This document shows, piece after piece, positions 23,986 to 61,932 of a DNA stretch of 64,000 nucleotides. Under the pieces are notes generated by a model. That model did not search any database, was not told the origin of the DNA, and saw only the letters and a program-made list of their open reading frames with translations. This stretch comes from Psammoneis japonica (lineage: Eukaryota): NCBI GenBank assembly GCA_008632985.1, contig QPGO01000064.1, forward strand, positions 248,001-312,000, read 5' to 3'. A program made the position numbers and the translations under genes. Positions within the stretch are counted from its first letter, which is position 1; the number at the start of each line of letters is the position of its first letter.

Positions 23986-26083
23986 TTTGCACTTCGCGTA
24001 GCATCAGCACTGAATGTTACGTAGCGCCCTTCATGATGGAATCGCACAACAGCATTTCTCTCTTGCCCTTTTTGCATAAATGCCAATGCCATGACCAGCA
24101 ATGACATTGTTGTTGTGATCAGGTCAATTGCGCCGGTTTCAGCTCTAGAGTAGATGTAATGCGTAGTTCAAATTTGGCGAAGAATTCCATGGTCCGTGCG
24201 TCGTCAGGATCAGAATCTTTTCAGCCACGGCACCATGATTGCACTGCTTTTTACTGATGTTTCCATGCAGGGCTTTGCTTTTTCATCAACATTGCAACAA
24301 CAATGCGGCAAAGCATCATCTCGGAAGCACCCACCAAACACCACATGCTGGCATCGTCAAGCAAGAAGAGAGGTGCGCTGCCTGCTGCAACAATGAAAAA
24401 TCTTGTGATGCTGCAAAGAGCACAAATGCCCAGCTCACTCAGTGTGTGTCCGAGCGCAAGGAGCAAGCAGAGGACCATGTTTTGGCCTCCAGAAAGCCTC
24501 CCATCAACAAAAACACCTCCTCTCATGGCAACTTTGCATCAAAAAATGTCTTTTTGCTCACTTTTGTTCTTTTTGCAAAAAACTCTCATCTCATGTGTCA
24601 AGAGCAACAAGAGCATCTTTCTCTCCTTGGGGCCTTCTTGCGCAACCCTTGCAAGAACCGTCTGGCTGAGAATGGATTGCATGTCATTCATGGACAAATT
24701 GCCACCAAGAACATTGGCATCTTTTGCCATCAACTGGCCCTGAAGGATCAAGACCACGAGCACGACCTGGTCACGGCATGGAGTGCAGCACAGGGAGTTG
24801 TGCTCTTTCTTGACAGCTCTTGGCCAGTGGACTTGGTTGGCGAAAGGGGGGCTGACAATCTCTGGGGATGTCACCATGATGTGACCTGTGGCAGCACACC
24901 ACCTGGCAACAAAGACTGGCCCAACCAGCCTTTCTCTCATTCTCTCCACGGTGTTTTGTCACGTCGTGCACTCCGACTGGCCGTCTGAAGTGATTGCGGT
25001 GGTTTGCAGTTGAACACTCGAACAGAGCCACATTTCTATGATGTCTTTGACGAGAAAATCTTAGAGCTTCAACAGTGGGGAGCAAAACGACCCATCGGCC
25101 ATCATTGCCGACACAATCTTTTCGTGTGTGCAGCAAAAATGAACGGCATGTGATGCTGCAGCTTTCGATCTGTGGGCTTTTCCCGTGCTTTTCGAGCCAG
25201 TCCTGTTGCCCCTAACTTCAAGATGTGACCAAAGTGAGCAAAGCGATCACAACCGGAAAAGAAAACTGAAGCACACAACAAGCAGTGTGATCACCTAAAT
25301 TTTGTGGGAAAAAAACCGTTGAACAATTTGGTGGATGAATGTGTTTCAATGATCACATCTCTCCCTCAAACACTGTCATCCGAACAAACCCTCAGTGTCT
25401 CACCCCCCTTTTCACATGAGGAATTTGGCTCTGCTGTTCGTTTTCTCCGATGACGCGATTTGAGAAAAAACCGTTAAATTGAGCAGTGATCACCTCCATT
25501 TCCCACAAAATGGAGGTGATCACTGCTTGTGGCCGGCAACCATTCGCAGCGCTCGTGGCATCGCTTCAGGCTTCGGGCAAGCTGTTCTATGCCACAAACT
25601 CTTGGACCATGATTCTCAACCAAAAATGCCATGAGCACAATGTTTCGCATTGGCATTTGTGTTTCAAATTCAGCCCAGAAAGCAAAGATTCTTCCCTCCG
25701 ACACGACGGTTGACGGTTCATCGTCCACCACGGCACACTGTGGGCAACAGTGCTGTGCAGAAAGGGCATGAAGAGAGAAACTTCCAAGAGGCAGATCAGA
25801 TCATCAAAGGACTTTCCCGCCCACTCGACACCTTTGAGAGATGTCATGAGGCTACCCGAACCGTTGTGCGTCACTCTTGAACTCTTGACATCAGGTCTTG
25901 CCATTCCCGAACCACGTCTGCGACTAAAAATGAGAATGCTGTGAGAAACCGCGACTGCAGTCACGGCGGATGCTGAACGATGACGAGAAATCTATGGCGT
26001 TGTCCTGCACTTTTTTTCTTGCAAGGTCGCTTTCATCCTTTCCACTGTTTTTTACTTTGCTCTGCAAGACGTTCATCCACATC

Positions 26084-28679
26084 ATGGACCGTCGCAACAA
26101 GCATGACGATGAAGATCAAACAAAAGAATCAGAACAAGATTTTGAAGATTTGGTCTGTGATTTCAAAGAAGCTGCGTCTCCTGACAGCTGCAAGGAAAAG
26201 ATGATGAACAACCCCCAGCACGCTTCTCATCAACGTCATCAAGAACGAAAAGAAGCCTTGATGCTTGACAGCGAACAAGTTGAGATGGCTTCAAACGATG
26301 TTTCAAGTGCACGTGATCAAGAGATGCCGTCTCCTGGAGTCGCAGATCAGCGGCACAATTCTGATGGCCATGATGACGTGCTTCCACATCCTGGAGCTCA
26401 ACGAGTGGGAGGAAATGACCAGGAGGATGAAGAGACTCTGTTCTTGTTTACAAATCCTCCTTCTACGTCTGAGCAAGAAGCAGCACAGGCGGCACCCACC
26501 CCGACGGCTTTTCTCGTGCCTCCACCAGGACGTTGGGAACAATGGTGGTCCAAGACCCGCAACCGTCATCTGTTGATTGGTGGGGTCCTGGCAGTCGTTG
26601 GGGCTCCAGTGGCGGGGGTGGTGACCTTGGCTGTTGAAACTTCACCTCCGACGACCCCATCTCCAACGAACGTGCTGGACTTGTCAGACCTGGACGGCTC
26701 CAACGGCTTTCTCATCAATGGAATCGGCAGCTTTCCCCTGTCATCTGCTGCTTCTGTGGCAAGTGCGGGTGATGTCAATGGCAACGGGATCCATGATGTG
26801 GTTGTGGGAGGTCAGTTTGCAGAAAGTTTGGACACTGGCGAGGCCCATGTCATTTTTGGGCGACATGACTTTCGTCCCGCATTCAGCGTGAACACCTTGG
26901 ATGGGTCCAATGGATTTGCTGTCTCGGGAGCCAATTCGTCCGACAGAACTGGATGGGCAGTGGTGGGTGTGGGGGATGTCGATGGTGATGGGTTTGCTGA
27001 TGTCTTGATTGGCGCCTGTGACGCAGATCCTTTGGGCCGCGACGCAGCTGGAGAAGCCTGCGTGGTCTTTGGCAGACCTTGTGGTTTCCCTGCCAATCTT
27101 GATTTGTCGACCCTTGATGAACGCAATGGCTTTGCGCTGCGTGGCATCAATGGAGGTGATCAAGCGGGGTGGTCTGTTGCGACAGCTGGTGATGTCAACG
27201 GGGATGGTTTTGATGACATTGTCATTGGAGCTCCTGGACCTTTTGCTTTTGAGAGCGGCGATCGTCCAGGTGCCGCATGTGTCATTTTTGGCAGAGCAGC
27301 AAGTTCTTTCCCTTCTGCATTTGATTTGTCAACACTCGACGGAATCAATGGCTTTTCGCTGATTGGGATTGAGAATGGTGACAATGCAGGGGTCTCGGTT
27401 GCAGGTGCCGGCGATGTCAATGGCGATGGTCTTGGTGACCTTGTTGTCGGGGCACACAGTGCCACTCGAAATGGCAATGTTGATGCTGGCGAGGCCCATG
27501 TCATTTTTGGAAGAGCCGGCGGTTTTGAATCTTCCATCAATTTGTCTGCACTCGACGGAAACAATGGTTTCATCTTCAAGGGGACTGACGAATTCGATCA
27601 CACAGGGAAGTCAGCAGCTGGCGGCGGCAATGTAAATGGAAACGGTCTGGACGATGTCATGATTGGTGCGCACAACGCTGGTCCGGGTTCTGATGCTCCC
27701 GGTGAAACATGTGTTGTCTTTGGGAAGTCTGCAGGCTTTGATTCTTTTCTGGATTCTTCAATGCTTGACGCGTTCCAGCCCTAGGTGGGACTCCGTGTGA
27801 CATTGGGCCCGTAGAATTCTACGTGCGAGCTCCGTAGTACGAGAATTTAATTAATGGATATATTTATCTTCAACATCAAATAAACGGCCAAGTTTGTGGT
27901 ACAATTATGCCTCTTACCACTCGACGTTTTTGCAACTTCGCCTGCCCTACGCGATTCTTAAGACATTGTAGAATCGCGCTGCAACAAAAAATGTCAAAAG
28001 TTGTTGGACGGATCGCTCAATAAGTGCACCGTAAAATGACACAAAATATCGAAAAAATCACGTAGAAATCTACGTGCGCGACATACGACGAGACTCAAAA
28101 AACTATCGATGTCACAGTTCAGTAGTACGAGGTCCCACCTAGACCTGGAACGCGTCGCTTGACGGCACCAATGGATTTGTCGTGAAAGGTGTCAACAATT
28201 CGGACCATGCCGGGGAATCTGTCGCTGGTGTCGGCGATTTCAATGGCGATGGTTTTGACGATGTCATTGTTGGTTCCCATGGCGCAAATCCAGACAACAA
28301 GGATGACGCTGGACAGGCATGCATTGTCTTTGGAAAGGGTGCCAGTTTTGCCTCTGCGATTGATTTGTCAACGCTGGATGCCAAGAATGGTTTCATCATG
28401 AACGGCGTTGCTCCTGGTGACTGGGCCGGGTGCGCAGTGGCCAGCGCTGGTGACGTAAATGATGATGGCTGTGATGGTGTCTTTGTTGGGGCACCCGGTG
28501 TTCTTTCAGGTGGTGAGGCCCATGTCGTTTTTGGTGACGGAGCGTGCAAAAAACCCAGAAACAGCAATGGCAGGGCCCCAGTGATGCGGAGGATTGGATT
28601 CACAAGGGCTGGAAATCAAGTTCAAATGCGAAGACAGTTTGTGTTGTCTCACGCCGCCCTTCTTTTTTGCTCTTCATGA
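26084..28679 (+). pseudogene. Type-II membrane FG-GAP (integrin-alpha beta-propeller) repeat gene, hypermutated and interrupted by a MITE
   Basis: Seven LDG.NGF...AGDVNGDG.DD..IGA...G.A[H/C]V.FG repeats, TM segment, PTTPSPT linker, zero Tyr. Removing 27767-28160 restores the frame (SMLDGTNGFVVKG). Confidence 0.9.
27767..28156. mobile_element. 390-bp non-autonomous TIR element (MITE), complete copy
   Basis: 25-bp TIRs GACGCGTTCCAGCCCTAGGTGGGAC / GTCCCACCTAGACCTGGAACGCGTC (2 mismatches), 4-bp TSD GCTT (27763-66 and 28157-60), second copy at 50940. Confidence 0.95.
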
Positions 28680-29600
28680 ATGGAATGTTCGTGGATGCAA
28701 TGTCGCCTTGTTGTTGTCAACGGGTCAATTTGTGGCCAAGTCAAATCTTGATGCGATTCCTTGGTGCGCGCAAAGTCAGGGGCGGAATCCACTTTTTTCC
28801 CTCCGACGTTTGCAGCTTTGCTTCAGCGCTCATCTTTGGCTGCGACATCTGAGTTCGTTGGTTTTCCTGCAATCATGTGCAAAACTGGGATTGCTTTGTT
28901 GTTTCGTCAACGGTGGTCATTGTTGCGACTGCTCATCTTGCTACAAATTGCCAAACACTTGGCAAAAACGCACGCAAACCGCCTTCGTTCGCCTCTGAAG
29001 GGAAAATTTCCATTCGTTGCGATTTTGTGCCAGAGCCACGTGGAAATTTACAGCGCTGCGTCTTGCTGCTTTCCGACTCCCGCCTCCGACCTCCGATGAA
29101 GACACGGCGAAGCACGAGGATGTGTCCGACAATGGCGGTGCCCATTGTCATCGATTCTGCCAATTTTCACACTCTCCCGTGTTTCATTTAACTCCAAATG
29201 GTGATGAAAGAGAGCTTTGGTGCTTTGCATTTTTTCCATTGGCGGTTTCACTCACATTTGTTCTCCGTCTGCACCATTTTGACATCCCAGCTAGTGTGAC
29301 GCGTAGTTTTTGCTTCTATTCAGGAGCATTGCGGCTTAAGTTGTCGTTCATCAACCAACACTGGTGAAATTCGTTCGATTGTTGAATGCCTGGTGTTGCT
29401 GTGTGCACATTTGAGGCAATGGGAGGGCAAGAAATGGCTCGTGCAAGAGCGCACAACGCGTCATGTTGCTTGACAGATGCAACAGATGGCAGAGTTGGAT
29501 GTGATCAATGAAGAGGTTGAATTTATGGTGCACAGGAGGGCAAACATCAACTTCTCTCTGTCGGCGGAGGGAGTGACTCGCTCACAACTAATTTTAGATT

Positions 29601-29790
29601 GGGTTCCATGCTGCTCTGGGTTGTTTGTTCAACACTGCTCTAGATTCAATGCTGTGCTCTCTAGAGGTTATTTGTTCAATGCTGCTCTAGACAAGACACT
29701 GCTCTAGGTTCTTTGTTCCATGCCACTCTAGATTCGACACTTGTCCAGGTTCTTTGTTCAATGCTGCTCTAGATTCGACACTGCTCTGGC
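29601..29790. repeat. Degenerate ~41-bp minisatellite, ~4.5 copies
   Basis: Unit approx TGCTCTAGGTTCTTTGTTCAATGCTGCTCTAGATTCGACAC. Confidence 0.8.
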
Positions 29791-29849
29791 ACCAATGCAA
29801 TCGGATCATGCAGTGGCATTGTTGATTCCACATCATCTGTTTTTTTTCT

Positions 29850-30320
29850 ACATTGCTGGCATCCATCCCAATGAAGATCCACACTCAATGGCATGGCACA
29901 AATGCCGTCTCCTCTTTGGGCTTGGTCGGTCTACGAGACTGGGGCTTTCCTCCGGGTGCACGACATGGCGCGCCACTCCTCTTGCAATTTTCAAACTCCT
30001 CGACCGAAGTTTGCCACTCATCGAGCTCATTCTCATTCCTCTGTGCAACATTTCGAATTTAGTTTGGCTCATCTACAGAAAAATGCCCACATCTAATACA
30101 TTGACGGTGCGCCTCGTCGTCTGGCAGGCATCAGCCGACCAGAAACTTCCTGTCGCGCTCTTCGGCACACCGCACCATGGCTCGGTTCCCTCAGCTCGTC
30201 GAGCATTTTACATCCCTCGTGGGACCATCTACATCGTCATACTCGACAGTGTCATGTGGAGTTTCGGCGTTTGATTCCCGTGCACGGACACGGTTGTGCA
30301 CAGCGTTTGTTTGCCATGGT
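29850..30320 (-). pseudogene. Decayed coding fragment (CxxCGH..VDEP motif)
   Basis: One minus frame reads QCIRCGHFSVDEPN*IRNVAQRNENELDEWQTSVEEF...PKEETAFVPCH with stops. Confidence 0.3.
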
Positions 30321-30624
30321 TGAAGAGTGCGAGCGGTGTCATCTGTGTTGCAAAAAATCAACGCGCGGGAGGATTGTGTACTTTTCTACGTAGGCTGGTA
30401 GATCGAAGATCGCCACCTGGACAGAATAAATCGATATTCGTCTCTGAAGATTTTCATTGATCTGCAACCCGGAAGTGAAAGATATTCCCTCCGACACCGC
30501 GATCCGTATCTTTTCCTGGCTTCGCGTTTTGCAACCCCGATAGGAGCTGAGAATGAATCGACAACTACTCTCCCCGAGATAGCATAACGTTGTTGTTAGT
30601 ACTCTGATCGTAGTAGCACTGAAA

Positions 30625-33181
30625 ATGAAGCTCTACAGGTCGGCCGCTCGTCTCGGACGTTACACAACGACGGCTCTTTCTCAGAAGCAGCGTCTCCTCA
30701 GAAACAGGCGATTGATTCAGCGATCCTTACAATCGTCGTCGTCATGCTTTGTTGTGCCCAAACGAAACGAATCTGTATTATTGGGATGTGTCTCGTACGA
30801 TCCTGCCGTGAGTTCCATTTGGGGCATGATGAAAAACTATCTACTGAAAAGCGGCGGTGTGAACGGCTTTGATTTTGTGCTGTACTCCAACTATGAGCAA
30901 CAGGTCCGAGCGCTCTTGGATGGGGGCATTGATATTGCTTGGAACGGTCCATTAGCTCACGTCATGTGCGAGCAGCGTGCTGATATCGTCTCGTTGGGTA
31001 TGCGGGATGTAGATTGTGACTTTGAGTCTATCGTAGTCGTCACCAAGGAGAGTGGGATCAACACAACGAGCGACCTACATGGTGCTCGCTTATTGTCGGG
31101 AGCGATGGATTCACCGCAGGGTCATGTCATTCCCCTACACTATCTCAAATCAAAACAGATTGACGTTACAGTCGATCCTCAAAACGAGGATCTTGGAAAA
31201 CACGGTGACACCGCGGTTGGTGAAATCAAAGCCATGGAGGTGATGCTTGCCAACTCCTCTGCAGATTCGGCGCAAGGAGCTCTACTCTCTCGCATGATGT
31301 GGGACCGAGCCGTGAATGGACAGCTCGATTCAATCAATGCGGCAGACTTGACAAAGCATGCCACTGTTCTGTCGGATGCGAGTATCCCACGATTTGATCA
31401 TTGCCAATTTGACGCCTTGCAATCCACGGCAGAAACTGGAAAGTTGGACTCGTTTTACGCCGCCTTGCACGGCATGGATTATAATGATCCACAGCAGCAG
31501 CCCGTCATGAAGTTGGAAGGCATTCAACGTTCTTGGGCCAAGCCACGACAAGAGGGATACGACATTGTCCGAGCCGCAATGGGAGTGGCTGCTGCATCTT
31601 CAGCACGAGCCCAAAACTTTGTTCCTCGCGGAGTGCGAGCCTTTTCCACCATAAATACCAGGAGGAATAGCAGCAGTACTACCAATACCAGCAACAATAC
31701 CAATAGACAACTCGAACCGGGCAGTCGTGTGGGTGTGATTGGGTGTGGCGTTGCCGGTCTTCAAGTCATTCGGTCCATGCGTGCACGAGGTTATTACGTT
31801 ACGGCGTTTGACAAGGCGGACAAGGTTGGTGGACTCTGGCGCGAGAACTATGCCAATTTTGGTTTACAAGTACCAAAGCAATTTTTCGAAATGCCAGACT
31901 TGGAAATGACGGAAGCCAAATGGGGTGAACTCGCCTCGGGACCCAAAGTTCAAGCGTATATTGAACGCTTTGCTTCCGAGTTTGACCTTAACAGCTCCGT
32001 TCAACTCAAAAATGGCATTGACAAGGTTATTCGTAAAACAGATGGAACGTGGACATTTCATACCGAAAAGGGAGAAACGCACGATTTTGACTACTGCGTC
32101 GTCTCGACAGGAATGTACTCGACCGTTCCGTTTGTTCCAGACGTTCCTGGCAGGGACACGTATTCTGGATCTGCCATTCACAGCAGCGAATTCATGGATG
32201 CAGATGCTGTCAAGGAAAAGCGGGTCGTTGTGATTGGAGGCTGCAAGAGTGCCACGGATTGTGCCACCAGTGCAGCAAACGCGGGTGCCGAGTCTGTCAC
32301 TGTCCTTCAGCGACAAGCTCACTGGCCCACGCCTTTGCACATTGCCGGGCTCATTCCGTTTCAACACGTGTTTTTGAGTCGATTGGGCCAAGCACTCGTC
32401 GAAGCCAAGGTGGGAGTCTTTCCAGGAAGTAAATCGAGTGCTTATGCCTTTAATCCCATTATGGGAGCCGTCTTTGCAATTGTTGAGCAGCTGTTTGCCT
32501 TTCACTTGGGCTCAAAGGCGACTTGAGGCCTAAAACAGGAGTCGTGGAGGATTTTTACGGCTATGCAGCTGTACAAGACGATAGCTTCAAGAAGGTGCGC
32601 AATTCTGGAAAGGTAGATGTCAAGCTTGGAGAGATTGAATCATTTACTGCAAATGGCGTAAGTTTCAAGGCAACGAGATTGAAGCAGATCAAGTCATTTT
32701 TGCGACTGGGTTCGGCAAGGATTATGGCAAGCTCTTTGAACCAAACGTCGTCAAGTCCTTGGACGTGCAGAACGACGGACTTCTCTTGTACAAACGAATT
32801 TTGCCTCCGTCCGTGGATCGGCTTGCATTTGTTGGTGCCGAATCGGCAACCATTTTCAACTGTACAAACTCAGGTTTGCAGGCCGAATGGCTGGCTCGAA
32901 CCCTTGCCGGAGAGACCAAGGCAGATCTCAGCGAGGAATCTCTAGCCACTGACGCGAATGCATTCAAGGCGTTTGCACGCTCTTGGATGCCTGCCAGTTC
33001 CTCCCGCTCCGCGTTGGTGCTGCTACACCAGCTGCACTATTACGATCAGCTACTCGAGGACATGGGCGAGAAACCATCTCGGAAATCCAACGTGGTTGCA
33101 GAGTACCTTGGGTCGTACTATAGTCGCGACTATGACGGCATTGTTGGTCGACCCGCTCGCGCTGCCGCTGCTGCATCGTAA
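30625..33181 (+). CDS. Fusion of PhnD/SsuA-type substrate-binding domain and flavin-containing monooxygenase, with mitochondrial-type presequence; frameshifts ~32520 and ~32670
   Basis: LLGCVSYDP...LYSNYEQQVRALLDGGIDIAWNGPLA, then FAD motif VIGCGVAG, GGLW..NY, FMO motif YSGSAIHSSEF and NADPH motif VIGGCKSA. Confidence 0.85.
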
Positions 33182-34141
33182 GCAATGGACGGTATTGCAT
33201 TTGAAAAGACGAACGCGGTTGGGGCTGGTTGGAATTGTACGTTAAATAATTTTTGAACATTTTGCTTTCGATTGTATTGTAAAGTAGAGTATTGGCTTTT
33301 GCATCTCTTAGTTAGCATGCGGAAAAGTCACCTTTCTTTGACTCTAGCACCCGTGCACTCTAGAGTGGAATGAACTGGCGTCTCAAGAAAGGATCGAGCC
33401 TCTGACCTTACCCTTGTACCACAATCATGTCAGGCGACCAACTGTGCTTCATATACAGGCACGAGAGGGGTATCCATGGCAAAGGCACGAGAAGAAGAAT
33501 AGAATACACAGATAGAACGAAAGATGGGGAATAAATAAAGCACACACAATGTCATGCTTTGTTGGAAAAATGACAGTGTGTTGTCCCCGACAGTGATTGA
33601 GATCTCGACCAATGATGTTGTTACTTTGCTTCTACTCTAACCCACCATTTTCTCAGAAGCTAGATTGCATTCTAGACAGACATAAAACTCAATGAGCCTA
33701 GATTCTCGCTTGAGGACAATCTCGGACGGCTCCATGTAGCTCAACAGCTAGAGTCTATTCGCTTGCTACAAATCCATAGAATGGTGTCGTCAAGCATCCA
33801 TCTGGCGGTCAACTCGCTCCTACGTCTGGGTGACGCCCGAAACCCACACATTCGCAAGCATCAGTTTCCGATGAACTTTTTTCAAACGAACCTCATTTCA
33901 CGACAAAATTTTGATCGAACCTACCTCAAGCAACCCACTTTTGGCGAGGCTTTCGGCGAGGGTAAATGGAGGGCAAACCTGCAGTTTCAAAAATCACTGC
34001 GTAGAAATACGTAGAATCAGTACCACAAGCAATCCCACCACAGACCATCGAAGCAAATCGGCAAAATAGTTCTGCTGCTGAAGCTCTCACAATCCTCTTG
34101 CTCGTTGTAGAGTTACGGTTGTACCCCTTGCTATTGCAGTT

Positions 34142-35218
34142 ATGCTTTTTATGCTATCAACTCGATACATGCGCTCTCGCTTTTGCACCCAGCTTCGTTC
34201 TGGCGTGATGGGTATTGCAGTTCATGACCCACAACAAAGAACTGTGCTTGCTGCTGCGGTTTTCGTGACTCGGCAGCAGCGTCCTTTTGCATCGATCGCT
34301 GGTGGGCAACATTTGGCGTTTGTTGAGTTACCCACCATCATGACGGTTCCCATGGGATTCGGAATGAGACGTTCGCTGACTGCTACACTCTCGCCTGGCT
34401 TGAGATCTTCTCTTGTAGTGGCACAGCGGGCCGTTGCCGGTTCTTGCAATTTCGCTCTTACTTTGCGACTCACCGACTCTGTTTCTCCTTCGTTCTCTTC
34501 TATGCAGATCGTACCATATCGTCCCACTTTCCCTCTCAGATGGCTCTTGATTTTGTTGGAATGTCGTCGGAAGATTGCTGAAAGGATCCAGTTGTGCCGA
34601 GCCGTTCAAGATTTCGTTCGAGAAAAGAAGAGACGCGTCGAGTCACGAGCAATCTTGATGAAGAAGGTGTACAAAGATATCAAGAGACTGCATACAACGA
34701 AGAAGCGTCGGCAAGACAAAGCGGATAAGCTTGCGATCCAGGATTACACAGGCTCGGGGTACTCGGAGATTAACAAGTTCCTTCGTGGTCAGCAAACGTT
34801 GTTGAATCCCGAATTGTTGAAGTCACGAGCCAGCAACGTGGATCACGCACTCCAGCATTGTCCAAAGCTGAACTCCTTCAGTGGTGTTGTGTATCGTGGT
34901 ACGGAGCTATCGCAAGATTTATACGATTCGTTGAAGCCTGGTGGCACCTTTTCCGACCCAGCCTTTCTGAGTTCATCTCGCAAGAAGGAAAAGTGCAAGA
35001 GGTTTATCACCGGTGAAGGCGGCTGCAATACTCTCTTCGAGATTGAGAGCAAGACGGGCTTGGACGTAAAAGCGTTGGCACTCAAAAAGAATCAGCATGA
35101 ATGTGAAGTATTGTTTCGGCCAGGCACAAAGTTTCTTATCAAGTCGGTTGAAGAGCGAGTCGATTCCATGTTTGGAAGAATCACGGTTGTCTCGATGGAA
35201 CAACTTGTCAACTGGTGA
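34142..35218 (+). CDS. ADP-ribosyltransferase exoenzyme-family (R-S-E clade) protein
   Basis: YTGSGYSEINKFLRG, VYRGT (R), FLSSS (S), HECEVLF (ExE). Confidence 0.85.
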   Translation: MLFMLSTRYMRSRFCTQLRSGVMGIAVHDPQQRTVLAAAVFVTRQQRPFASIAGGQHLAFVELPTIMTVPMGFGMRRSLTATLSPGLRSSLVVAQRAVAGSCNFALTLRLTDSVSPSFSSMQIVPYRPTFPLRWLLILLECRRKIAERIQLCRAVQDFVREKKRRVESRAILMKKVYKDIKRLHTTKKRRQDKADKLAIQDYTGSGYSEINKFLRGQQTLLNPELLKSRASNVDHALQHCPKLNSFSGVVYRGTELSQDLYDSLKPGGTFSDPAFLSSSRKKEKCKRFITGEGGCNTLFEIESKTGLDVKALALKKNQHECEVLFRPGTKFLIKSVEERVDSMFGRITVVSMEQLVNW

Positions 35219-47450: not shown

Positions 47451-47599
47451 TTATGAGTCACCTGCTTTGTTCTTGGCTGGAGGTGAAGAAAAGCAGCTTT
47501 CCATGCTTTTTCACACTGCGCTGAGGGTCAAATTTGTCAGCAACCACCTTTGCATCTGCTGCGAAGAACGAGTGTGAACGAAAGCAGAGCGAAGTTCGA

Positions 47600-51311: not shown

Positions 51312-51945
51312 TGGCCCATGTTGATTTGGACAATTTAAGACAGCAGCAAACACAAAGCCAAAAAGGCAGTTAGCATGCTTTCAAATGGGACAATGGTGCG
51401 TGAAACACTTCACAGTCAGCAAATGTTCAAACTGGGTTGGTGTCACTGGATCACGCACAAGTTTCTTCTCCTTTGAGTCAAACATCGCTTTGGGAACCTC
51501 CAACATGGCACATCAGAAAGAAAGGAAGCCACACACTTCTCAGCCTTGAAAATGATTGAAGCCTGCCCAAACAAATCCTTTGCAGCAATGGGGTTGTTGT
51601 TGCGCCATTCTTCAGAAGTCAGTTGGCAGCGGCTTGCAGAGTTGTTCTCAAGAAACTCCACCAAACAGTCTTCTGCATGCTCAGCGAGACAAGCCAAATC
51701 AACATCAGGTTCTGCCTCAGCTTTGCGCTTCTTCCTGCTCTTGGCAGCCCAGGTGCTCTCTGTTTTCCTGTCAGTGCAAAATTTCAACCTGCAGCCTTGA
51801 ATCATGACAATGTCCCTTTTGACACTCAAGTCCGTTTGCTCCAAAATTTTTGTTTGTCGCATCTGTGTGGGCCCCATGGGTCGCTGCTCCTCCCATTCCA
51901 ACAGTTCAAAGGCAAGGAGGAGTTTCTGCCAACTTTCGCCCATGC
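51304..51945 (-). mobile_element. Second copy of the Harbinger/ISL2EU-type relic
   Basis: 51304-51752 aligns without gaps to 46794-47242. Confidence 0.9.
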
Positions 51946-54872
51946 CTACAGCAGAAGAGGAGCCAGACGGTAATCATGATTTGGAGGACCACAACGGCGA
52001 TGAAGAGAGTGGAATCTCTCGTCAACAGGAATCTATTGGAACAGGCGAAAGTCGGGGTAGTCAAAGGAGGCCCTTGTTAAGGAGTTCGGCTCCGAAAAGA
52101 CATTTTCGCACACAAAGTGTGGAACATACACTAGTTGGTTTGACGAAAGCCATGATGGCTTTTGTCGGGAAGCTTAAAGATGATCACAATCAAAGCAATC
52201 CAGCAAGCGTTCCCGAGGGGTCGCCTGCGGCAGGATTTACCGAAAATGCAATTTTACTTGCAGATCAAGCTTTGAGCAGTCCGACGTCTACTACCGGCCA
52301 CCTTTCGACTGTACCCGAAGGCGAGTCGGAAGTGAATTCGTCGCACTCCAACAGCGATGACAACGAAGATGAAGCAAAAGAGGGCGATAAGTCTCATGGC
52401 CGCATTCCTTTTTTCGGGAAGGTTGTTAAGAATAAAGAGAAGAGAAGAAAGAGTGCATTTGAAGAATCAACCGACAAGTTTAAGGAAGATATGGAGGTGT
52501 GGAGGAACTTTTTCCATCTTCGCCGAGATCGCGTTGCGGCGTACCTCAAGGTGGTTTTGCTTTACCTTTTGGTACCGCTCATTGGAGTTGCAGGTATCTT
52601 GTATTACATCTTCAATAATCCTCCGACGGGAAAAGAGGACGAGACCGTGCCGCTTGATGGGGAAGAAAATCAGACTGCGGGAGCGTCGGCGAGCTTTATA
52701 CTCATCTTTTGTGCTCGTCAAATCATCACATTTTCCATGGCTCTTTCAATGCAAGGCTTCCTTATTGACTTTTTGGCGCTTGACTTGCGTATTGTGTTGC
52801 GAGTTCTTGGGCCCGTTCTAACTTTGTGGCTTGTACAGTCCAGGGGCTGGCCTCATATTATGTTCTGGTGGTCTATCTTTGACTTTGCAATACTGTCAGG
52901 TGACAGCCGCTTTGTCAAACATTGGTTGTTTTGGCAAGATTCGATCGGTTTGTTCAATGAAAGCAACCCTTCCGGAAACATTGTGAGCAATGACTGGTAT
53001 CTCGACATGCTGATAGTTGCCGTGACCGTCAGCGTCGTTGTTTCCATCAAGCGTTTCTTGGTTGGGCTCTACTTGAGCCGCCAAACATTCTCTCATTACG
53101 GCCAACCGCTTGCCAATGTCATGAATAAGATTGTTCTTGTCAGTGAGGTTGCTGGATTGGCGAGATCTATTGCTAGCGACGATGTTGAGCCTTCAAAATC
53201 ACAGCTGATTCAAAGTACGGGCTTAGGCATTTCATACGATGGCGAAGATGACGGCAATACCTGCAAGAGTTCGGCTAGCGGTGGTCCCGATCTTATTGTT
53301 GACACGAACAACATCGATCCCCTTACTGGCAGTCTCCATTACACAGAAAAGATGAAGTTGATGCAGCTTCTCGACCAATGGGAAGAACCAACACGGCATG
53401 ACCCTGGAAGCAGCGAGAATGCTACGATTTCAGCTGTTCTAAGGTTCCGAAAAGCCCTCACTTTCGTTCAGAATCGATACCCTTTTGGTCAAGCGTTTGG
53501 TCTTGCAGATAATAGGGAGACTTGTGTCGAGTCTGCACAGAAAGTTTACCTTCGTCTGATGACGCATTCGCCGACCGAAGTTCTTCAATTTGAAAGGATC
53601 GCTTTGCTCGCTATCGATGACAACGAAAACATTGACCCAATCAAAGCTAAGGATTTGATACAAGTCTTCCGCCCTGATCGTCAAGGTTTCCTGACAATGA
53701 TTGACTTTGTTCGAAGTGTCGATTCTGTTTACAAGGAGTTCCGTTTGCTCGACGCAAGCATACAGAATTCCTCGCAGATTGATCGCGCATTCGAAAATAT
53801 TTTTAACTTCGTGTTTTACACGATTGTTGTTATCATTGTTCTTTCACAACTCGGGTTGTAAGTTTCTTTCTATTTTGTTGCTTGCGTACGATGCTGTCTG
53901 CTTTTTCATTGAGCCATTTTTGTTCCCAATTCTTTTGCAGTGATCCCTTGGCCCTGTTTTTGTCGCTTAGCAGCATCATTTTGGCATTTGCGTTCATGAT
54001 TGGAAATGCTAGTGCCAATTACTTTGAGGGGTTGTTGTGTAAGTCCCTACTACTTCAACTTTTTTTGGCGCTTCCAAAATAGACTCGATTCTCACGCTTT
54101 TTGCTGCGCCCTAAAGTCATTCTCGTCAGAAAGCCGTATGGTATAGGAGACAGGATCTCGGTTGCTCCTGTAGAATCCGATACTTCTCTCGATGGTGTAA
54201 TGCCGTGGGTGGTACAGCATGTGACTCTTTTTGAAACTGTGGTGACTTTCTTACCAACGAACGAGACTGCCAGTCTGTCAAACGGTTCTTTAGCAGCGAG
54301 TCGCATCGTCAACTGGGCGCGTTCACCGCAGGCCCAATTCCATATTTTTCTTGAGTTTCCTTTGGAAACTCCTTACGAGAAGCTCTTGATCTTCAAGACG
54401 GCCATTGAAGAGTACATCAAGGCGCGACCCAGGGAGTGGCGGGCATTGAATGGATTCCGTGTGAATCGCATTTATGCTCAGAAGAATTACATTGAGTTTA
54501 TCATTGTCATTCAGTAAGTTTTTCCCGAGAGTGCATTAAGATGACAATGCCACGATGGCTCTCTGGATCTGACTCACTTGTGATTTTTTCTTTTCATTGC
54601 GAAACAGACACCGGGAAGCTTGGCAGGAGATAGGCACGGTCTTGGATTCCAAAGCCAACTTGACAAGTTACTGTCAAGAGGTCTCTAAGCAGCTTGGTCT
54701 GCAGTACCAGGCACCGAAACTTCCTGTGGACTTGCGTTACAGCGCCATGCCCGCGGAAGAAGAATCATCCGGGGAATCCAACCGCAGCCGAGTAGATAGC
54801 CTTGACCAGGAAGCCTTACAGAAGGAATTTCAATCAGTAGCGCGAAACAAACATCAAATTCGGGCTGGTTGA
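51942..54872 (+). CDS. MscS-like mechanosensitive channel with EF-hand; three introns; 5' end uncertain
   Basis: TM helices, FRPDRQGFLTMIDFVRSVD EF-hand, FAFMIGNASANYFEG, VRKPYGIGDRI, NGSLAASRIVNWARS. Introns start ~53858, ~54039 and ~54514. Confidence 0.9.
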
Positions 54873-55494
54873 AAAGTCGTAGACTTCGGCATATCTCCGA
54901 AGATTTAGAAAAGTAGGGTAAAAGATGTAGAAAGACAGAGCGTTAATAACATCTCTTCCGACAGAATCAAATGTGACAGTGTGGCTCTGATAAACTCGTA
55001 AGTACAACTTTGTGATATGCGATTACTCATCGCTGGTATCTCGATGTCGCTGAGAAAAGCGGACTCGAAAGCACTGTTTTTGATCAAAATGCAGTAACCT
55101 CTACTCTAGTAGTAGGTTGCATTTTAAAAGATTGAGCTTTTGTTGGTCCTGCGGTGCGTGCGTGTGGCTCGCGAAATTCGGGTGGACATACGATCAGACG
55201 GATGTATTGTGTGCTTTTTGCTTTTTGTTTCATACTCGGAGTAGCTTTTAGGAATCAATCCGGGCGAATAGGTTCTTGAATCATGGTTTGGGAAAAAGTT
55301 GAACTGCTTTGAGCAATCGATCGACAGACGGATAAAAATAATGAGCCACCATATACTCACGACCCAAGTCGAAAGCCCCGCAGTATCTATCGTTTCTCAT
55401 CCACGAGCCAAGATTATGTACGCACAAGCCAATACGGATTCTCCCAGGCCAAAATCACGCATTTCCGGACCGATACTACATTCCTCTAGACAAA

Positions 55495-56224
55495 TTATCC
55501 AAAACACTCGCGCTTTCGTCCGCGTAATCTAACTTGCGCAAGTCTCAGCAAAACTGCGTGCGATCTAGTGCATTTTGCCTTGTAGGCATCCCAGAGTTGA
55601 TCCAGAAAGCATCGTCCAGAGTTGGATGAGTGGACTGAACGGCACGTTCCAAAACATACAGGTCTACCGCCAGTTCTTCTGGGTTGGTCGAAACGCGGGC
55701 CAATCCAAAATCAATCAGTGTGAGCTGTTGTTGCTGATCGTTGTTGTTTTCTGAAATCATAATGTTGGACGTTGTCAAATCCCATGCACGATACCGATAT
55801 TATGAACCTTTGCAATCAATTCTCCCATGGCTATTGACAACTTTTGTAGTGATGTTGTCGCATCATTGTTGGCGTTTGTATTGGAAGCTTGTTCTTCGAT
55901 ATACTCTCGAACCGTCTTTCCCTCAACAAACTCCATGTACAGCACAGGAGGATGAACACCATAGAGTGCGGGACATGGAATTCCGGCACGCCGACACTTG
56001 GTAAGACACTTGGCTTCCGCCTTGCATCGTTGCTTCGTCAATCGTTCATCCAGCAAGGCGTGTCGATACGATTTGGAAAAGCGTTCTTTTGCAATCGCGT
56101 CTCCCAACGACAGGTAGTTTGGGATTTGATACAATCGTGCTTCGGCTCCTTGCGAAATCAATGACCAATCAGATTGAGGTTCGAATAATACTTGAGAAGA
56201 AGGCTTGCGTTCTGTCGATGTCAT
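55495..56224 (-). CDS. BUD32: KEOPS complex kinase Bud32/TP53RK; frameshifts ~55780 and ~55600
   Basis: ISQGAEAR, KERFSKSYRH..LD, IVHG/DLTTSN, IDFGL, AVDLYVLERA, and C-terminus VRLRGRKRECFG. Confidence 0.93.
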
Positions 56225-56370
56225 GGTTACTGTTGTTATTGGGCTACGGTATGATATGGTGCTGTTTTCGGCATTGAACACTAACTCTGCGATGATGTGG
56301 ACGCATCGCCGATCGCCGCCGCGCGCCGTGTCTCTCATCTGCCTCAAGGGGAGGCGCACGGACAAGAATA

Positions 56371-56381
56371 TTTTCCCGCGC
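56371..56381 (+). promoter_or_regulatory. E2F-like motif TTTTCCCGCGC
   Basis: ~150 bp upstream of BUD32. Variant ATTCCCGCGC at 56721. Confidence 0.45.
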
Positions 56382-56990
56382 TTTTTCCAAGATCGGTTTC
56401 TGTTTAAGTATCACGCATAGATAAATTCAACTTTGGAAACTATTGAAATATTAGAACTTCTTGTAATTCATAATCCATATAAATCCGATACTCAATGGCC
56501 TCAACGGACAATCTGTGGGCGCCAAAATGTCCCATAAGTATTCAAATCGGACAATTATATAATATTAACGTTAAACGTTAAAAAGGTATCGCAAAATGGA
56601 CACTCATTTATCAAAGTTTTTCGGCCCAACGATCGTCAATTAGGTGAAAAATTCAAATGAGTTTTTAAACTCGAATACACACATGAAATTACTTAAAGCG
56701 AAATTTTTTCGTCAGCTTGAATTCCCGCGCCACCTCTTGAAAACGAGTTGTTCCTTTCATCATTGCTTGTGTTCATTGTTTACACCAAAACCAGCCAGCA
56801 AGTCATTGTTTCAATTGAATCGCCCGTGTTTGAATCCACAAGAAGAACTCTAACGGTTGGAATTTATTCAAACAACACGAAAAACGAGTCAGAGTGGCGT
56901 TTTTGAATTGTCAGAAGTGATTGCGAATGATCCGATTGCTTACACGCAACACCCTGTCCCAACAACAACGCGAACACTGTCACAAATAAT

Positions 56991-57779
56991 ATGATCCCGT
57001 CTCCCACCATGGACAACAAGAATGTCTTGTTGGATGAACTGTCCGCCATTGAACGCGTCTATGGAAAGCGCGTTGATTTGTACAAGGACGTGTTAAAAGT
57101 CTCCTCGGAAGCTTCACCACCTCAAGTTCAGAACGCCTTTTTTCATCAACGACAAGAACTCTTCAAACGTCTCGGACAATCATCGCGAACAGACGCTCGT
57201 GCCGAGAAACAAATGGATGCCTTGGTCTTGTCGTATCGTATTATTGGGGACGCGGTCATGCGAGGGGAATACGATGATTGGAAAAAGTCGAGCCGCAGCA
57301 GCAAGGCAACGCCGCCACGAACGGTGACTCCCGAAAAGGAAGAGCGGCAATCGAAAAACTCATCCAGATCGAGCAGTCGACGGTATGCCATGGATGAATC
57401 GGTTGTGGCGGAGACTACTAGTAAGAGGAAAAACACTACTCCGTCGAGAAAGAGCAAGCGCAAGAGTCGATCGTATTCCTCTTCCTCCTATGATTCTTAT
57501 GGGAACCATTCGGATGATGAGGAGACGTACGGTGACACTACGACACTGTTTTCCGCCGAAACGAGAGGTACAGAAACGGTCTTTTCCGCAGAAACGGCTC
57601 TATCGAAACGAAGCGGCAGTACTTCGTTTTTCAGACGAGCTGCCGAAGAGATTGAAGGGTGCATTGAAGACACGGTTAGCGCCTTTGATCAAGTCTTGAA
57701 TGTATTTACGCTCAATGACCGGGATATTCAGGCTGTGACGGGGAGGATTCAAAGAGCCAAGAAGGAATTGAGAAAGTAA
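56991..57779 (+). CDS. J-domain-like protein lacking HPD
   Basis: DLYKDVLKV...QVQNAF...LSYRIIGD..RGEYD. Confidence 0.65.
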   Translation: MIPSPTMDNKNVLLDELSAIERVYGKRVDLYKDVLKVSSEASPPQVQNAFFHQRQELFKRLGQSSRTDARAEKQMDALVLSYRIIGDAVMRGEYDDWKKSSRSSKATPPRTVTPEKEERQSKNSSRSSSRRYAMDESVVAETTSKRKNTTPSRKSKRKSRSYSSSSYDSYGNHSDDEETYGDTTTLFSAETRGTETVFSAETALSKRSGSTSFFRRAAEEIEGCIEDTVSAFDQVLNVFTLNDRDIQAVTGRIQRAKKELRK

Positions 57780-57860
57780 TTGGTATTGCTGTGGAGAGAG
57801 TAGAAAAGCTTATAATGCTACTTAAGCAATACGAACTCGAGTGTCTAAATGTCTATCTTC

Positions 57861-59635
57861 TTAACTGGGCTCTACCATGAGTTCAACTTGTGGTGTAATC
57901 TTGTTGGTCTCGCCACCCGTCCACTTGTGTTTGAGATACGTGTCGCTGGACATTTCGTGCAGTCGACTTACCGTACGGTCAAAGCTAAACACTTCATCCA
58001 CAAACTCATTCTCCTCGTCCAATACAAACAGCTCTTCCGGCTTGACTTGCGCTTGAATCACAAGCTTGACATGATGTTCGTACATGGCGTCAATGAATAT
58101 AATGAAACGACGAACCCAATTGATTTCATGCAAGTGTAACTTGGGAACATTTTGAACAAAGACAGTGTTGAAATTTTGGGCGATGACGAGATAATCCGCC
58201 GCTCCCAAGGCTTTTTGGCACAAGTCTTCAAATTGAAATCGAGCAATTCCCTTTTTCAATGACGCTTGCGGGATCTTGACTTTGCGTCCCAGCGTTGTGA
58301 GCTTGGTCGCAGTCATGGTTCGATTCCGAGTGACCAAGCGGTACATTTTTTCAAACTCGTCCAGTTCCGCGCCCTGGCCTACAAAGTAAACGCCGCCGCC
58401 GTGACTTGATTCGGCACTGGCGGCCTTTTGGACCAAGCGATAGTCCACGACCGAATCCCACATGCTAACGACTGCTAACTTTTCCTATAAAATGGATATA
58501 AAGGAATGGATTGAGTTCGCGATTGATAACTTCAAACAAGCCCATACGTATGTCACTGTGATACGACACCTCTAACAAATCAATAAAGGGCAAGAACAAA
58601 TCTCGTTGCAAGCCATTCAGATACAAGTCTTGTGGCGGTCGATTCGAGGTTGCCACTACAACAGCGCCCTGTTGTAACATCATGGTGAAGAGTCGTCGAA
58701 GAATCAGTGCGTCTGCTACATCGGTGACTTGGAATTCATCCAAACAAAGCAATCTTCCACTCTGCAAGGTTTGTTCCACCACGTGGCTCAAGAGCGCATC
58801 GCCATCCTTGATGCCCTCTTTCATTTTCGCCTCGTGCATCTATGTACAGAAAAGGGTAGTATAGAGATGGTGAGTGCGAAAAGTAACTTGTCTACCTGAA
58901 TCTATTACACACAACGTGAGTTTTCTTACAGTACCTTCTGATGAATCCCCAACATGAATTGATGGTAATGTACTTTTTGTCTGTCGTGGTCCCACGAAGT
59001 TCCTTCGATGCTATCATAAAACAGATTCATACAAAACGTTTTACCGCAGCCAACTGTGTTTTCGTAAAAGAACAGAAAAAGAAAGGAAGGGGTCAAAAAT
59101 ATATGATGGATCTCAACTCGCTGTGCTTATCAACACACTAGCAAGATACAATCATACCTCCTCCATGCAAGTAGACTCCTCTTGGAGCAGTACTTAATGC
59201 GTGGACAACACTATCAGTAGCTGAAGCAAAGAAGAAGCCCCCAAATATCGAGGAATCTTGTTGAAAAGGCGTCTCTCTGGATGACATGGTTGGTGGTTCA
59301 TACGCGAGCAAGTCATTTCGCAGTCGATTCAGTTCTGTCAGAGCGGCGATCTGATGTTCATCATGCTGGACATTCTCTTCTGTAGATTCGCCTTGTACAA
59401 GATCCTCGTACATGGTTAAAAGTGTCATATCATTGTTGTTTTCTTCTTGTCGGCTAGCAAAGCTTCTGGTTGTCAATCGAAAAGATTCGTTGTGGAGGCG
59501 ATGCTTTGTTGGGACTGATAATATGAAAGATCCAGCGCTTCTTGAAATCAGAGTCCCACCCATTCCTCTGCATCGACGATACGTTGACTCTAAAAGGCAT
59601 CTAGAACGGCTTTGTATTCGACAGGACAGCGCCAT
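57861..59635 (-). CDS. AFG1: AFG1/LACE1 (ZapE)-family ATPase, multi-exon
   Basis: RGVYLHGG/VGCGKT Walker A, CLDEFQVTDVADALIL, TSNRPP.DLY.NGLQR, RRFI.FID.MYE, RTVSRL.EM. Confidence 0.93.
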
Positions 59636-59879
59636 GGTGCAATTCAATTCTCGCACTCTTCTCTCTCTCGTTTGCGTTTTTGCGCTTATGAGCTGTGGAT
59701 TCGTAGCAAGCAATGGGCAATCGCGAATTCCAGTTATGCCAATGCCTGATATCAACTCGTGGTTCTTCTTGTGCTCGAGAAATAAAGGCTCGCCATGTTG
59801 ACGGTTGCCTTCATTGTCATTGCATAAAGCGAATCGATCATCGGCAACCAACATCGTCTGTCCTTCGCTGTTGATGAAC

Positions 59880-61900
59880 GGCGCCAACACACTGATTGAT
59901 AGATGCGATGTTGTGTGTGCACTGCACTGCTTGTTTGCTCCTGCTGCTTCTCTTGCTGTTGTCTGCAAAAGGCCAAACTCCAAGGAGAATGTGCTCATGC
60001 ACAAGATAATGCACGGGTGACAGGCACGTGCAAGCTGCAGCAGATTGCACCCCACCATCAGTGGCGCACCTGGTGGTCATTGCCCTTCTTTTGTCCTCAT
60101 GGGAACAGGACAAGGAGATGCATGCTTTCAGATGACAGCTGGCTGACACTGGCAAGCAGCTTGTGGCACGAGCTTTCCACTGCAGTGGGAAGCCCACAAC
60201 ACAGATGCATGCACCACATGTCACATGCCTGCGCTGATTTGTGGGGAGCTGTGTTGATGCCGTGTGCCGGCTCTTGAGAGGGCGCCAGTTGCGACAAGTG
60301 AGCTCTCACACCCTGCTGGGGATTGTTGTGCACTCGATGTGACCAACCAAATGCCACAGCTGTTGTTCCAACAACAATCTTTGTGCAACTCACCTGGCCT
60401 GTTTTTGTTGCCAAAAGTTGGCACACAAGGCCATGTGCACCAGCTCGGCTCAAACTCACAATTTTTCAACCCCTGCACTGCCGTTGGTGGGTGCTCTGCA
60501 AGGCCCATTACAAGTTTGTGTCCAGTCTGCAAGGTGCTTGTGCATGACACATGCAGAGCCACAGCATTCCCTGAATCTGAGTTGTTGCATCACAAAGCAT
60601 GAACAGTCAACCAACAGCGGCTGGCTGGGTGTTGCCAGCTGCAAGAAGTGAGCCCACATTTCCTGATGGGAAGGGCTGTGCTGTGTGCTCAAGTGCACCC
60701 TCCCTCCCTGTGTGCAGCACCTGCTGTTGAAAAATTTTGTGCGCAAAGCTGTGCAATTTGTTTGCAGCAGATGTGGGAAAAAGTGTGCTTGCTTGCAAGT
60801 GTGTGCCAACAGAACACCTGCACACTTCATGTGACCAGCCAAATGTGCTGCAGTTGTTTTGCCTCAATGGCAATCTTTGTGCAGCCTGCCTGGCCTTTTT
60901 GTTCATGTCAAAATTTGGCACACAAGGTCCTGAGGATTGTTGCACACTTGGTGTGACCAGCCAAATGACACAGCTGTTGCCTCAGCAACAGTCTTTGTGC
61001 AACCCACCTGACCTTTTTGTTCGTCATCAAATTTGGCACACAAGGCCATGTGCAGCAATGTTCAAACTCACAGTTTCAACCCTTGCATCAGCACTGGTGC
61101 TGCAAAGTCTAAGACAAGTCATCCAGTCCACCAAATGCTTGCAAAGGATTCAAACAAATCATCATCATCATTTGATGTGTTCACCCCACATGAGAACTTT
61201 TGAACAAATCACAAGGCTTTCCATGTGTTTTTGTGTGTTACACACACTTGGCTCCAAATCTAAAACAAGAACAATCCTTTCAAGCCTCACATTGTAAACC
61301 GAGCACACCCCAAATGGCACCATGCTGTCACCATGAACTCTCACATTTGTCATGAGCTGACATGTGTTTGTGTCTAACCTGCAAAGGCAAAAATGCAGCA
61401 GCAGGCAGGTGATCAAGACTTTCATTGATGTGAGTGTGCTGAAGATTTTCAGGACCAATGGCAAATGCAGACAGGGCAGCTTGGAACAATTTCTCCTTCC
61501 TCCAGCGCATTTGTGCACCCAGTGCATTGGATTGCATGGTGTGGAGGCACTGCAAAACTTCATGGAATGACAAAAATCCACTTCTGATTCAGTTTTGCTT
61601 GACTGGTTTGATGCCTTGTTTGTGACCAAGCTTCTTTGCAACCCATGCAGCAGATGCAGAAAGCTCTTGCTTGACACTTTACATTGTGGGGGTTTGTCAA
61701 TGACACCTGTGTTGTCAAAGCACCCACCTTCAAAGGCATGAGTGAACATGGCAACAGCATTGTAAACATGGTTGCCAAACAACTCAACAAAAACATGCAA
61801 CACACACAGCTTTGTGCCACGAAGAAAAAAGAAGCTGCGAAGCTGCAGGCGGAACCTTTGCTGGTTGAGCAGCCAAAAAAGGCAACAAAATCTAACTTTT
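59880..61900. other. TpA- and CpG-depleted domain D (unidentified repeat relic)
   Basis: TA and CG both rare, TG/CA dominant, between the AFG1 promoter and the stop of the next gene. Confidence 0.9.
60320..61100 (+). repeat. Three ~125-bp degenerate direct repeats
   Basis: TGTGACCA.CCAAATG...TCTTTGTGCA..C.CCTG.CCT...TTGGCACACAAGG at ~60338, ~60830 and ~60953. Confidence 0.85.
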
Positions 61901-61932
61901 CTAATGTTTGTCTAAACTCTAAAATATCGACG

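Follow-up and report, generated by a model that had tools for sequence, protein, structure and literature searches.

Here we report on a 64,000-bp stretch of the genome of the diatom Psammoneis japonica (GenBank assembly GCA_008632985.1, contig QPGO01000064.1, positions 248,001 to 312,000 of the forward strand), which we call the window and number from its first letter. Within it lie blocks that have lost almost all of their TA dinucleotides and have gained TG and CA. These blocks are probably stretches of diatom chromosome left behind by a saturating, regionally confined, DNA-level hypermutation of TA to TG or CA – a process of the type described in the chlorarachniophyte alga Bigelowiella natans. 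An earlier note on this DNA had proposed that, in repetitive or silenced chromatin, TA undergoes A-to-G conversion on both strands. The tyrosine sites of a dead gene, a tandem duplicate at a block edge and the mass balance of dinucleotides bear this proposal out; the silencing of the chromatin itself we infer.

Extent of the TA-depleted blocks

In sliding 1-kb windows the ratio of observed to expected TA (o/e) falls to 0.00–0.14 in the affected blocks, as against approximately 0.4–0.78 elsewhere, flanking genes included. Six cores amounting to 15,293 bp (24% of the window) contain 65 TA between them, against an expectation of about 609 (background: 1813 TA in 45,504 bp). The cores, the partly depleted tail of the first block and the two insertions that interrupt them are as follows (p-values are binomial).

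24165–27766: core D1a, comprising 1.8 kb of unannotated DNA and the first part of an FG-GAP pseudogene; 14 TA against 143 expected, p = 9e-45
27767–28156: copy 1 of a miniature inverted-repeat transposable element (MITE), 390 bp long and inserted in the FG-GAP open reading frame (ORF); its terminal inverted repeats measure about 24 bp and its target duplication, GCTT, 4 bp; 27 TA
28141–29188 (28157–29188 after the MITE): core D1b, the remainder of the FG-GAP gene and downstream DNA; 3 TA against 42 expected, p = 5e-15
29189–30378: transition zone of intermediate TA density, with a 41-bp tandem repeat at 29611–29787 (4.2 copies, Tandem Repeats Finder)
40906–41542: core D2, flanked by a mitochondrial-carrier gene and an unannotated ORF; 5 TA against 25, p = 8e-7
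43645–50939: main core of D3; 31 TA against 291 expected, p = 2e-86
50940–51302: MITE copy 2, inside block D3, its right end missing; 27 TA, 96% identical to copy 1
51303–51946: core D3b, holding the right copy of a 467-bp direct repeat; 2 TA against 26, p = 2e-9
59826–61892: core D4, TA- and CG-poor and single-copy; 10 TA against 82 expected, p = 2e-24

The boundaries of the cores are sharp and can be resolved to tens of base pairs, the exception being the partly depleted tail at 29189–30378. The blocks sit between, or close to, the ORFs of neighbouring genes: D1 has a HIRAN-domain gene on one side and a flavin-monooxygenase (FMO) fusion gene on the other, while D4, which contains internal repeats of 118 bp and 614 bp (within 60307–61087), has one end upstream of an AFG1-like gene and the other 40 bp short of the stop codon of a DUF5010-CBM35 gene. 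TA loss spans coding and non-coding DNA alike, and the remaining intergenic DNA of the window is TA-normal.

The four domains poor in TA and enriched in TG and CA that the earlier note had picked out are real, and resolve into six cores. Its counts were also close: we find 31 TA in the 7,199 bp of 43741–50939 (it gave about 30) and 28 in the next 430 bp (about 33). So too is the depletion confined to discrete blocks and absent from the flanking housekeeping genes. As to the extents of the domains, the depletion stands, but the gaps at 27767–28156 and 50940–51302 are copies of one TA-rich MITE and not DNA outside the domains.

Origin of the TA-free state

A critical issue is whether the blocks lost TA or never had it. 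The clearest answer comes from the FG-GAP repeat gene in D1, which survives in two parts.

25934–27781 (+): FG-GAP repeat ORF, part 1, 616 codons without a tyrosine; Pfam FG-GAP E = 8e-24
28143–28676 (+): FG-GAP ORF, part 2, after the MITE, 178 codons without a tyrosine; Pfam FG-GAP E = 9e-10

The gene is internally repetitive and its best named homologues are bacterial (43–52% identity). Among 120 listed homologues the motif G-x-[AST]-X-[VIL]-[VILF]-[FY]-G has tyrosine at X in 834 of 860 instances, histidine in 3 and cysteine in none; in the window gene the successive X positions read H, C, C, H, C, C, H, so that all seven are other than tyrosine (three His, four Cys). Change of TAY to CAY yields His and change of TAY to TGY yields Cys. 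Because a conserved tyrosine reads His or Cys at every one of the seven motif positions, the TA-free state is derived and not ancestral. When the MITE and one copy of its target duplication are excised in silico the frame is open across 783 codons, and the FG-GAP gene was therefore formerly one long ORF. Reading of this repaired frame indicates that the gene lost its tyrosines and that the MITE split it afterwards, or in any case as a separate event.

Equivalent evidence comes from non-coding DNA at the left edge of D3, where one copy of a duplicated segment lies outside the block and the other runs into it.

43154–43724: diverged tandem duplication, period about 330 bp, 71% identity; copy 1 in normal DNA, copy 2 entering D3

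Seventeen TA of copy 1 can be aligned, and in copy 2 these read CA (six), TG (five), TA (four) or something else (two); TG or CA thus stands at 11 of the 13 changed sites. Within the core none of seven TA is retained, compared with 49 of 72 other dinucleotides, and two sites only 2 bp apart show opposite outcomes. With TA in the outside copy and TG or CA in the inside copy, the duplicate again marks the TA-free state as derived. A second pair of repeats lies wholly inside D3.

46793–47259 (+): left copy of the 467-bp direct repeat (LTR-like), 93% identical to 51303–51766; the pair brackets a high-copy segment

The two copies differ by four TG/CA double differences, a pattern fitting the independent resolution of one self-complementary ancestral dinucleotide (TA or CG). 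Codons and copies between them show, on the most direct reading, that the TA-free state arose via TA to TG and TA to CA, that is, by A-to-G change on either strand.

Dinucleotide balance and loss of CG

Pooled strand-symmetric o/e values in the cores as compared with the background are 0.07 versus 0.57 for TA, 1.64 versus 1.18 for CA/TG and 0.53 versus 1.03 for CG; the other seven dinucleotide classes differ by no more than 0.14, and GC content in the blocks is the same or slightly higher. Only TA and, separately, CG have been lost. In the three large blocks the gain in CA plus TG equals the combined loss of TA and CG (0.085 versus 0.081, 0.040 versus 0.045 and 0.050 versus 0.053), the fit being poorer in the small blocks of about 640 bp (0.028 versus 0.064 in D2, 0.054 versus 0.076 in D3b).

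The removal of TA and the gain of TG and CA accord with the earlier account, to which must be added that in some blocks – the left part of D3, D3b, D2 and D4 – CG too has been strongly reduced, and in others not. The left part of D3 and D4 together hold 65 CG against 316 expected, and D2 has 16 against 36, while in D1 the reduction is mild (222 against 264). In the CG-poor blocks (43645–47147 and 59826–61892) each NCGN context is down 3.7- to 17-fold, GCGC being exempt (14 against 14.3). In D1 TA is gone and CG is nearly intact; the two losses are thus separable processes. The loss of CpG is an accompanying, separate process that leaves the loss of TA unexplained. It may reflect a slower clock – deamination of 5-methylcytosine (5mC) – running on the same silenced DNA.

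Strand and flanking bases

TG and CA are about equally frequent in each block (871 TG and 855 CA in 43500–51950). That both strands were hit, with outcomes alternating over a few base pairs, indicates a DNA-level process and neither RNA editing of one strand nor strand-coordinated deamination of single-stranded DNA; the pattern suggests that the events on the duplex chromosomal DNA were independent of one another.

The 65 residual TA are scattered through the cores, and their flanks are far from uniform (chi-square 122, 9 degrees of freedom, p = 5e-22). Relative to expectations drawn from the window background – which may differ from the ancestral composition of the blocks – TTAA (15 observed, 24.9 expected), CTAA/TTAG (15, 33.9) and GTAA/TTAC (15, 86.7) account for most survivors, while GTAC (1, 52.8), ATAC/GTAT (0, 103.8) and ATAT (0, 41.3) have been wiped out.

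Support from a DNA run

One public DNA run covers the locus, as k-mer contigs at a depth of about 55. The TA-free sequence recurs in these contigs, which differ from the window at 19 letters over 4,529 bp of TA-poor single-copy DNA (contig records 2, 3, 4 and 8), compared with 35 over 9,420 bp of normal DNA (records 1, 6 and 7); record 8, which covers 1,856 bp of D4, departs from the window at 3 letters. The differences are of the level of ordinary single-nucleotide polymorphism. In allelic divergence the blocks are close to normal DNA, as expected once the TA targets are exhausted.

Adjacent double differences between CA and TG separate the window from the run at 44271–2, 45188–9 and 46526–7, all in TA-poor DNA, and at 55924–5 in normal DNA; a TA/CA polymorphism stands at 44226. 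These suggest that a few sites, TA or CG in the ancestor, were resolved after two haplotypes or strains had split. A process restricted to the blocks does not account for the double difference at 55924–5.

Copy number and content of the blocks

Depth in the DNA run divides D3 into two parts.

43645–47147: left part, poor in TA and CG, with no recognisable protein; single-copy from 45156, with repeat-like bins at 43828–45155
47148–50939: right part, a high-copy repeat depleted in TA that has neither a long ORF nor a Pfam domain; 37–55 stops in each minus-strand frame

At 45156–47147 and 59764–61755 depth is 55–69 (59–64 in D4), as against about 55 in flanking genes, which makes this DNA single-copy at a likeness of at least 85%. 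At 47148–50467 it rises to 4,476–18,497, or about 80- to 330-fold. The bins containing MITE copy 2 reach 49,251–63,990, roughly 1000-fold.

Neither MITE copy shows clear signs of the process. Five of the 13 substitutions between them are between TA and TG or CA, a number that is not significant given a very TA-rich element and the lack of a family consensus. A search of metagenome contigs for the terminal pattern of the element gave no matches. Copy 2 abuts the 467-bp direct repeat, the first 8 letters of which equal the missing MITE terminus, and its right end may have been lost by microhomology-mediated deletion.

We scanned 117 of the 136 stop-to-stop ORFs of at least 70 aa in the blocks against Pfam (cut-off E < 0.001), the other 19 falling in 25,934–28,676, the FG-GAP region, which was scanned separately. 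Nothing among the 117 passed this cut-off, whether transposase, reverse transcriptase, integrase or viral domain. The best sub-threshold match is Vint/Hint (E = 0.0019, not significant over 117 tests), in an ORF at 46394–46699 (+) in orphan TA-poor DNA. An ORF of 224 aa at 44545–45216 (−) has no match among 1.84 billion representative proteins. Most block ORFs are rich in Cys and His and look spurious; long spurious ORFs are to be expected, because loss of TA removes TAA and TAG and never creates an in-frame stop. The earlier description of the domains as transposon relics is weakened accordingly, since 47148–50467 alone is demonstrably high-copy and none of the 117 ORFs has a transposase or reverse transcriptase domain.

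Other genes in the window

The ORFs of the window are long and intron-poor, as suits a diatom. Two are bacterial in appearance and TA-normal: an ORF at 30583–32526 (+) that fuses a periplasmic phosphonate-binding to a flavin-monooxygenase-like domain, and the DUF5010-CBM35 gene at 61933–63669. Bacterial-like ancestry by itself, then, does not attract hypermutation. A further ORF in TA-normal DNA, at 34082–35218 (+), encodes an ADP-ribosyltransferase exoenzyme/ART domain (Pfam E = 1e-11). For the P450 ORF at 15201–16859 (−) the best named homologues are from diatoms (Thalassiosira spp., Helicotheca, Seminavis, Bacillariaceae and Fistulifera; 39–49% identity), further relatives reaching 72–80%. 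A contig from a second run aligns to the AFG1-like gene at 57852–59727 (−) as three segments, with 85 bp and 318 bp left out between them in the manner of a spliced transcript, in a run that is not recorded as RNA. No RNA run was listed as covering the locus. Over the TA-poor blocks that second run gives scant cover or none, and we draw no inference from this as to expression.

Discussion

If the blocks record hypermutation then the nature of the target and of the chemistry become central. The targets would be silenced, non-self or junk chromatin – a dead bacterial-like FG-GAP gene, a high-copy repeat, orphan DNA – selected by chromatin state and not by copy number. ADAR, TadA and ADAT enzymes favour U or T on the 5′ side of the edited A. 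The chemistry in the blocks could be enzymatic deamination of adenine to hypoxanthine, which is read as G, perhaps by an ADAT2- or TadA-like deaminase. The Pfam scan found no deaminase domain among the window ORFs that it covered. The burst would have been fast relative to neutral decay, the FG-GAP frame being still open over 783 codons under a process that is unable to create in-frame stops.

Several points weigh against this account. Targeting by chromatin and deaminase chemistry are both steps that we infer, and the DNA run may come from the same sample as the assembly. The two 467-bp repeats have most of their TG/CA states in common, with 4 discordant; part of the loss of TA therefore predates their duplication, and the high-copy family may have been poor in TA before it spread. 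A foreign origin of the blocks is unproven: there is no viral or transposase domain, one ORF is without homologues and the bacterial-like genes are TA-normal. What evidence there is on the origin of the targets comes from one high-copy repeat and one FG-GAP gene with bacterial best named homologues. The expectations for flanking context carry the limit given above, and the rules of strand choice resist simple modelling. A per-strand neighbour model fits the survival counts, but is right about TG versus CA at only 8 of the 19 informative sites, its log-likelihood of −25.95 being worse than that of a coin flip (−18.02 for 50:50); a test based on tetranucleotide gain was uninformative (r = −0.36 and 0.25). 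Given the failure of the per-strand model, the flanks seem to set whether a TA step is attacked and not which of its strands, the choice of strand seemingly being random.

Other chemistries deserve attention, since T-to-C change on one strand cannot be told in sequence from A-to-G change on the other. The modified base could be the T of TpA (oxidized to 5-hydroxymethyluracil or 5-formyluracil by a TET/JBP-type enzyme) or a methylated adenine, or the mutations could come from an error-prone repair patch. 5-formyluracil mispairs with G and causes T:A to C:G change. That flanks predict the strand at 8 of 19 sites only would suit an enzyme to which the TA step is presented as a duplex and not as a single-stranded TA-N context. 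Nothing in the window favours a modified T, however, and repair of the pol-eta type (WA to WG) would deplete AA and enrich AG, when in fact AA/TT stands at 1.29 in the cores and 1.17 in the background, and AG/CT at 0.95 and 0.93. The authors of the B. natans study likewise prefer deamination, also without proof (10.64898/2026.01.13.699255). On balance we regard these chemistries as unlikely, though with a chance that deserves to be kept in mind. We attach a smaller probability to the framing of the earlier note, in which repeats are recognised by homology, as in repeat-induced point mutation (RIP), and then mutated at TA. The 80- to 330-fold repetition of 47148–50467, the internal repeats of the FG-GAP gene and the 118-bp and 614-bp repeats of D4 would all suit it. 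Nonetheless 45156–47147 and 59764–61755 are mutated and single-copy, and a MITE present about 1000-fold keeps 27 TA per copy within two blocks, even if at 390 bp it could fall below a length threshold; the hypermutable viral insert of B. natans is also single-copy (10.64898/2026.01.13.699255). The label 'repeat-targeted' is thus one that we abandon, and recognition by homology we consider improbable.

More improbable still is that the blocks never changed in place, their composition being that of foreign DNA or the product of selection to avoid TA (for instance against a TA-reading nuclease). Neither D3 nor D4 has yielded an unmutated progenitor, and the states shared by the 467-bp repeats are as this explanation would have them. 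But a structural tyrosine has become His or Cys in seven of seven repeats of a gene that is itself split by a MITE, which speaks of decay and not adaptation; the tandem duplicate has TA outside and TG or CA inside; and TA is lost from coding and non-coding DNA alike. Almost nothing speaks for A-to-I editing of RNA by an ADAR- or ADAT-like enzyme, followed by reverse transcription and integration, beyond a preference for U-A like that of RNA adenosine deaminases, a point raised in the B. natans preprint (10.64898/2026.01.13.699255): the strands are about equally affected, a single sense strand carries 4 Cys and 3 His, and the blocks include intergenic single-copy DNA. We give just as little credence to an artefact, an error of assembly or base-calling arising from a modified base at TA. 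The locus is found in the runs of one sample only and the sequencing technology behind the window is not stated; set against this, k-mer contigs at about 55-fold depth have the same TA-free sequence, and a strand-symmetric miscall would yield CG as often as TG or CA, when CG is in fact depleted.

If hypermutation of TA is the correct explanation then its consequences extend beyond the window. To what has been reported for B. natans the blocks add new details: saturation, tyrosine-free gene corpses, the sparing of TTAA (and YTAA/TTAR), random choice of strand, separability from the decay of CpG, and an untouched MITE. They show what a target looks like in the long term – dead genes without tyrosine, and orphan DNA with only TG and CA among its pyrimidine–purine steps – and they are evidence against the counting of repeats as the trigger. 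The sparing of TTAA is a constraint that any candidate enzyme would have to obey. There is also a hazard for annotation, in that with only TGA stops left, long spurious ORFs and Cys/His-rich orphan 'proteins' can be expected in diatom annotations. The diatom end-state would place the process in two branches of the supergroup SAR (Stramenopila, Alveolata and Rhizaria), and would make it, beside RIP and APOBEC, a third eukaryotic defence that mutates the invader, previously reported, so far as our searches show, from a single species. Tentatively, and with more doubt than confidence, one may go further and picture hypermutation of TpA not as a peculiarity of chlorarachniophytes but as an old and widespread arm of genome defence in SAR algae (Rhizaria and Stramenopila at least), aimed by chromatin state and not by the number of repeats or by viral identity. 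Its enzyme would recognise TA as a step of the double helix, spare TTAA and choose its strand at random: a natural editor of adenine in double-stranded DNA. Were this true, the enzyme should be findable in diatoms, which include transformable model species.

Comparison with known systems

The blocks resemble the products of fungal RIP in being regionally confined and sharp-edged stretches of aberrant, non-genic DNA saturated with dinucleotide-specific transitions. The direction is the opposite one, as the earlier note had recognised: RIP turns CpA into TpA and leaves DNA that is TpA-rich and GC-poor, whereas here TA is destroyed (o/e 0.07), TG and CA are gained and GC is the same or slightly higher. 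RIP, moreover, depends on duplication and a sexual cycle and employs enzymes like cytosine methyltransferases, whereas in the window the process has struck single-copy DNA and passed over a high-copy MITE. The deamination of 5mC in methylated transposons offers another parallel, since it too converts a self-complementary dinucleotide to TG or CA on both strands; but it removes CG, and in D1 it is TA that has gone, with CG nearly intact.

With restriction and editing by deaminases – APOBEC3 on the DNA of retroelements, hyper-editing of dsRNA by ADAR, and the editing of DNA by amphioxus BjADAT2 (as cited in 10.64898/2026.01.13.699255) – the blocks share clustered transitions, a preference for one neighbouring base and perhaps a bias toward non-self nucleic acid. 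APOBEC acts on C in single-stranded DNA, giving C-to-T changes that are coordinated by strand, whereas here both chromosomal strands are affected, and sites as close as 2 bp show no coordination. ADAR works on RNA and is known only from metazoans; the changes here are in chromosomal DNA, on both strands.

The closest parallel is that of B. natans, in which Mettrop et al. describe hypermutation of TpA to TpG or CpA in integrated viral and other foreign DNA in a 2026 bioRxiv preprint (10.64898/2026.01.13.699255). Their mutation-accumulation lines yielded 302 nuclear mutations; 231 fell in two integrated viral regions, and 230 of these 231 were A to G or T to C, all on TpA according to the authors; the rate was about 1000-fold over background, in some lines only. 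One insert, derived from a nucleocytoplasmic large DNA virus (NCLDV), is single-copy and stands at a Rho of 0.45. Genome-wide, 124 clusters are depleted in TpA and enriched in CpA and TpG, and are rich in unannotated, TE-like (transposable-element-like) and bacterial-like genes. As a candidate enzyme the authors put forward an ADAT2-like protein. The possibility, left open in the earlier note, that such a process was new has therefore been overtaken, both the hypermutation and the idea of an adenine deaminase being present in the preprint. For diatoms, our literature search returned no report of TpA-specific hypermutation; the preprint makes no mention of them, and one further paper (PMC9258296) proved unrelated.

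The P. japonica blocks and the B. natans regions have in common an A:T to G:C change at TpA only, on both strands, in discrete domains that leave neighbouring genes unaffected and that may be single-copy, together with long-term depletion of TpA and gain of CpA and TpG in clusters. They differ in that the host here is a diatom (Stramenopila) and not a rhizarian, in the saturation of the blocks (TA o/e 0.03–0.14) as against a Rho of 0.45 for the NCLDV insert, in having no recognisable viral gene, and in the strong loss of CpG from some blocks. In light of these parallels the diatom blocks are, in our assessment, best filed as a second lineage for a type of hypermutation described once before, in an unrelated alga.

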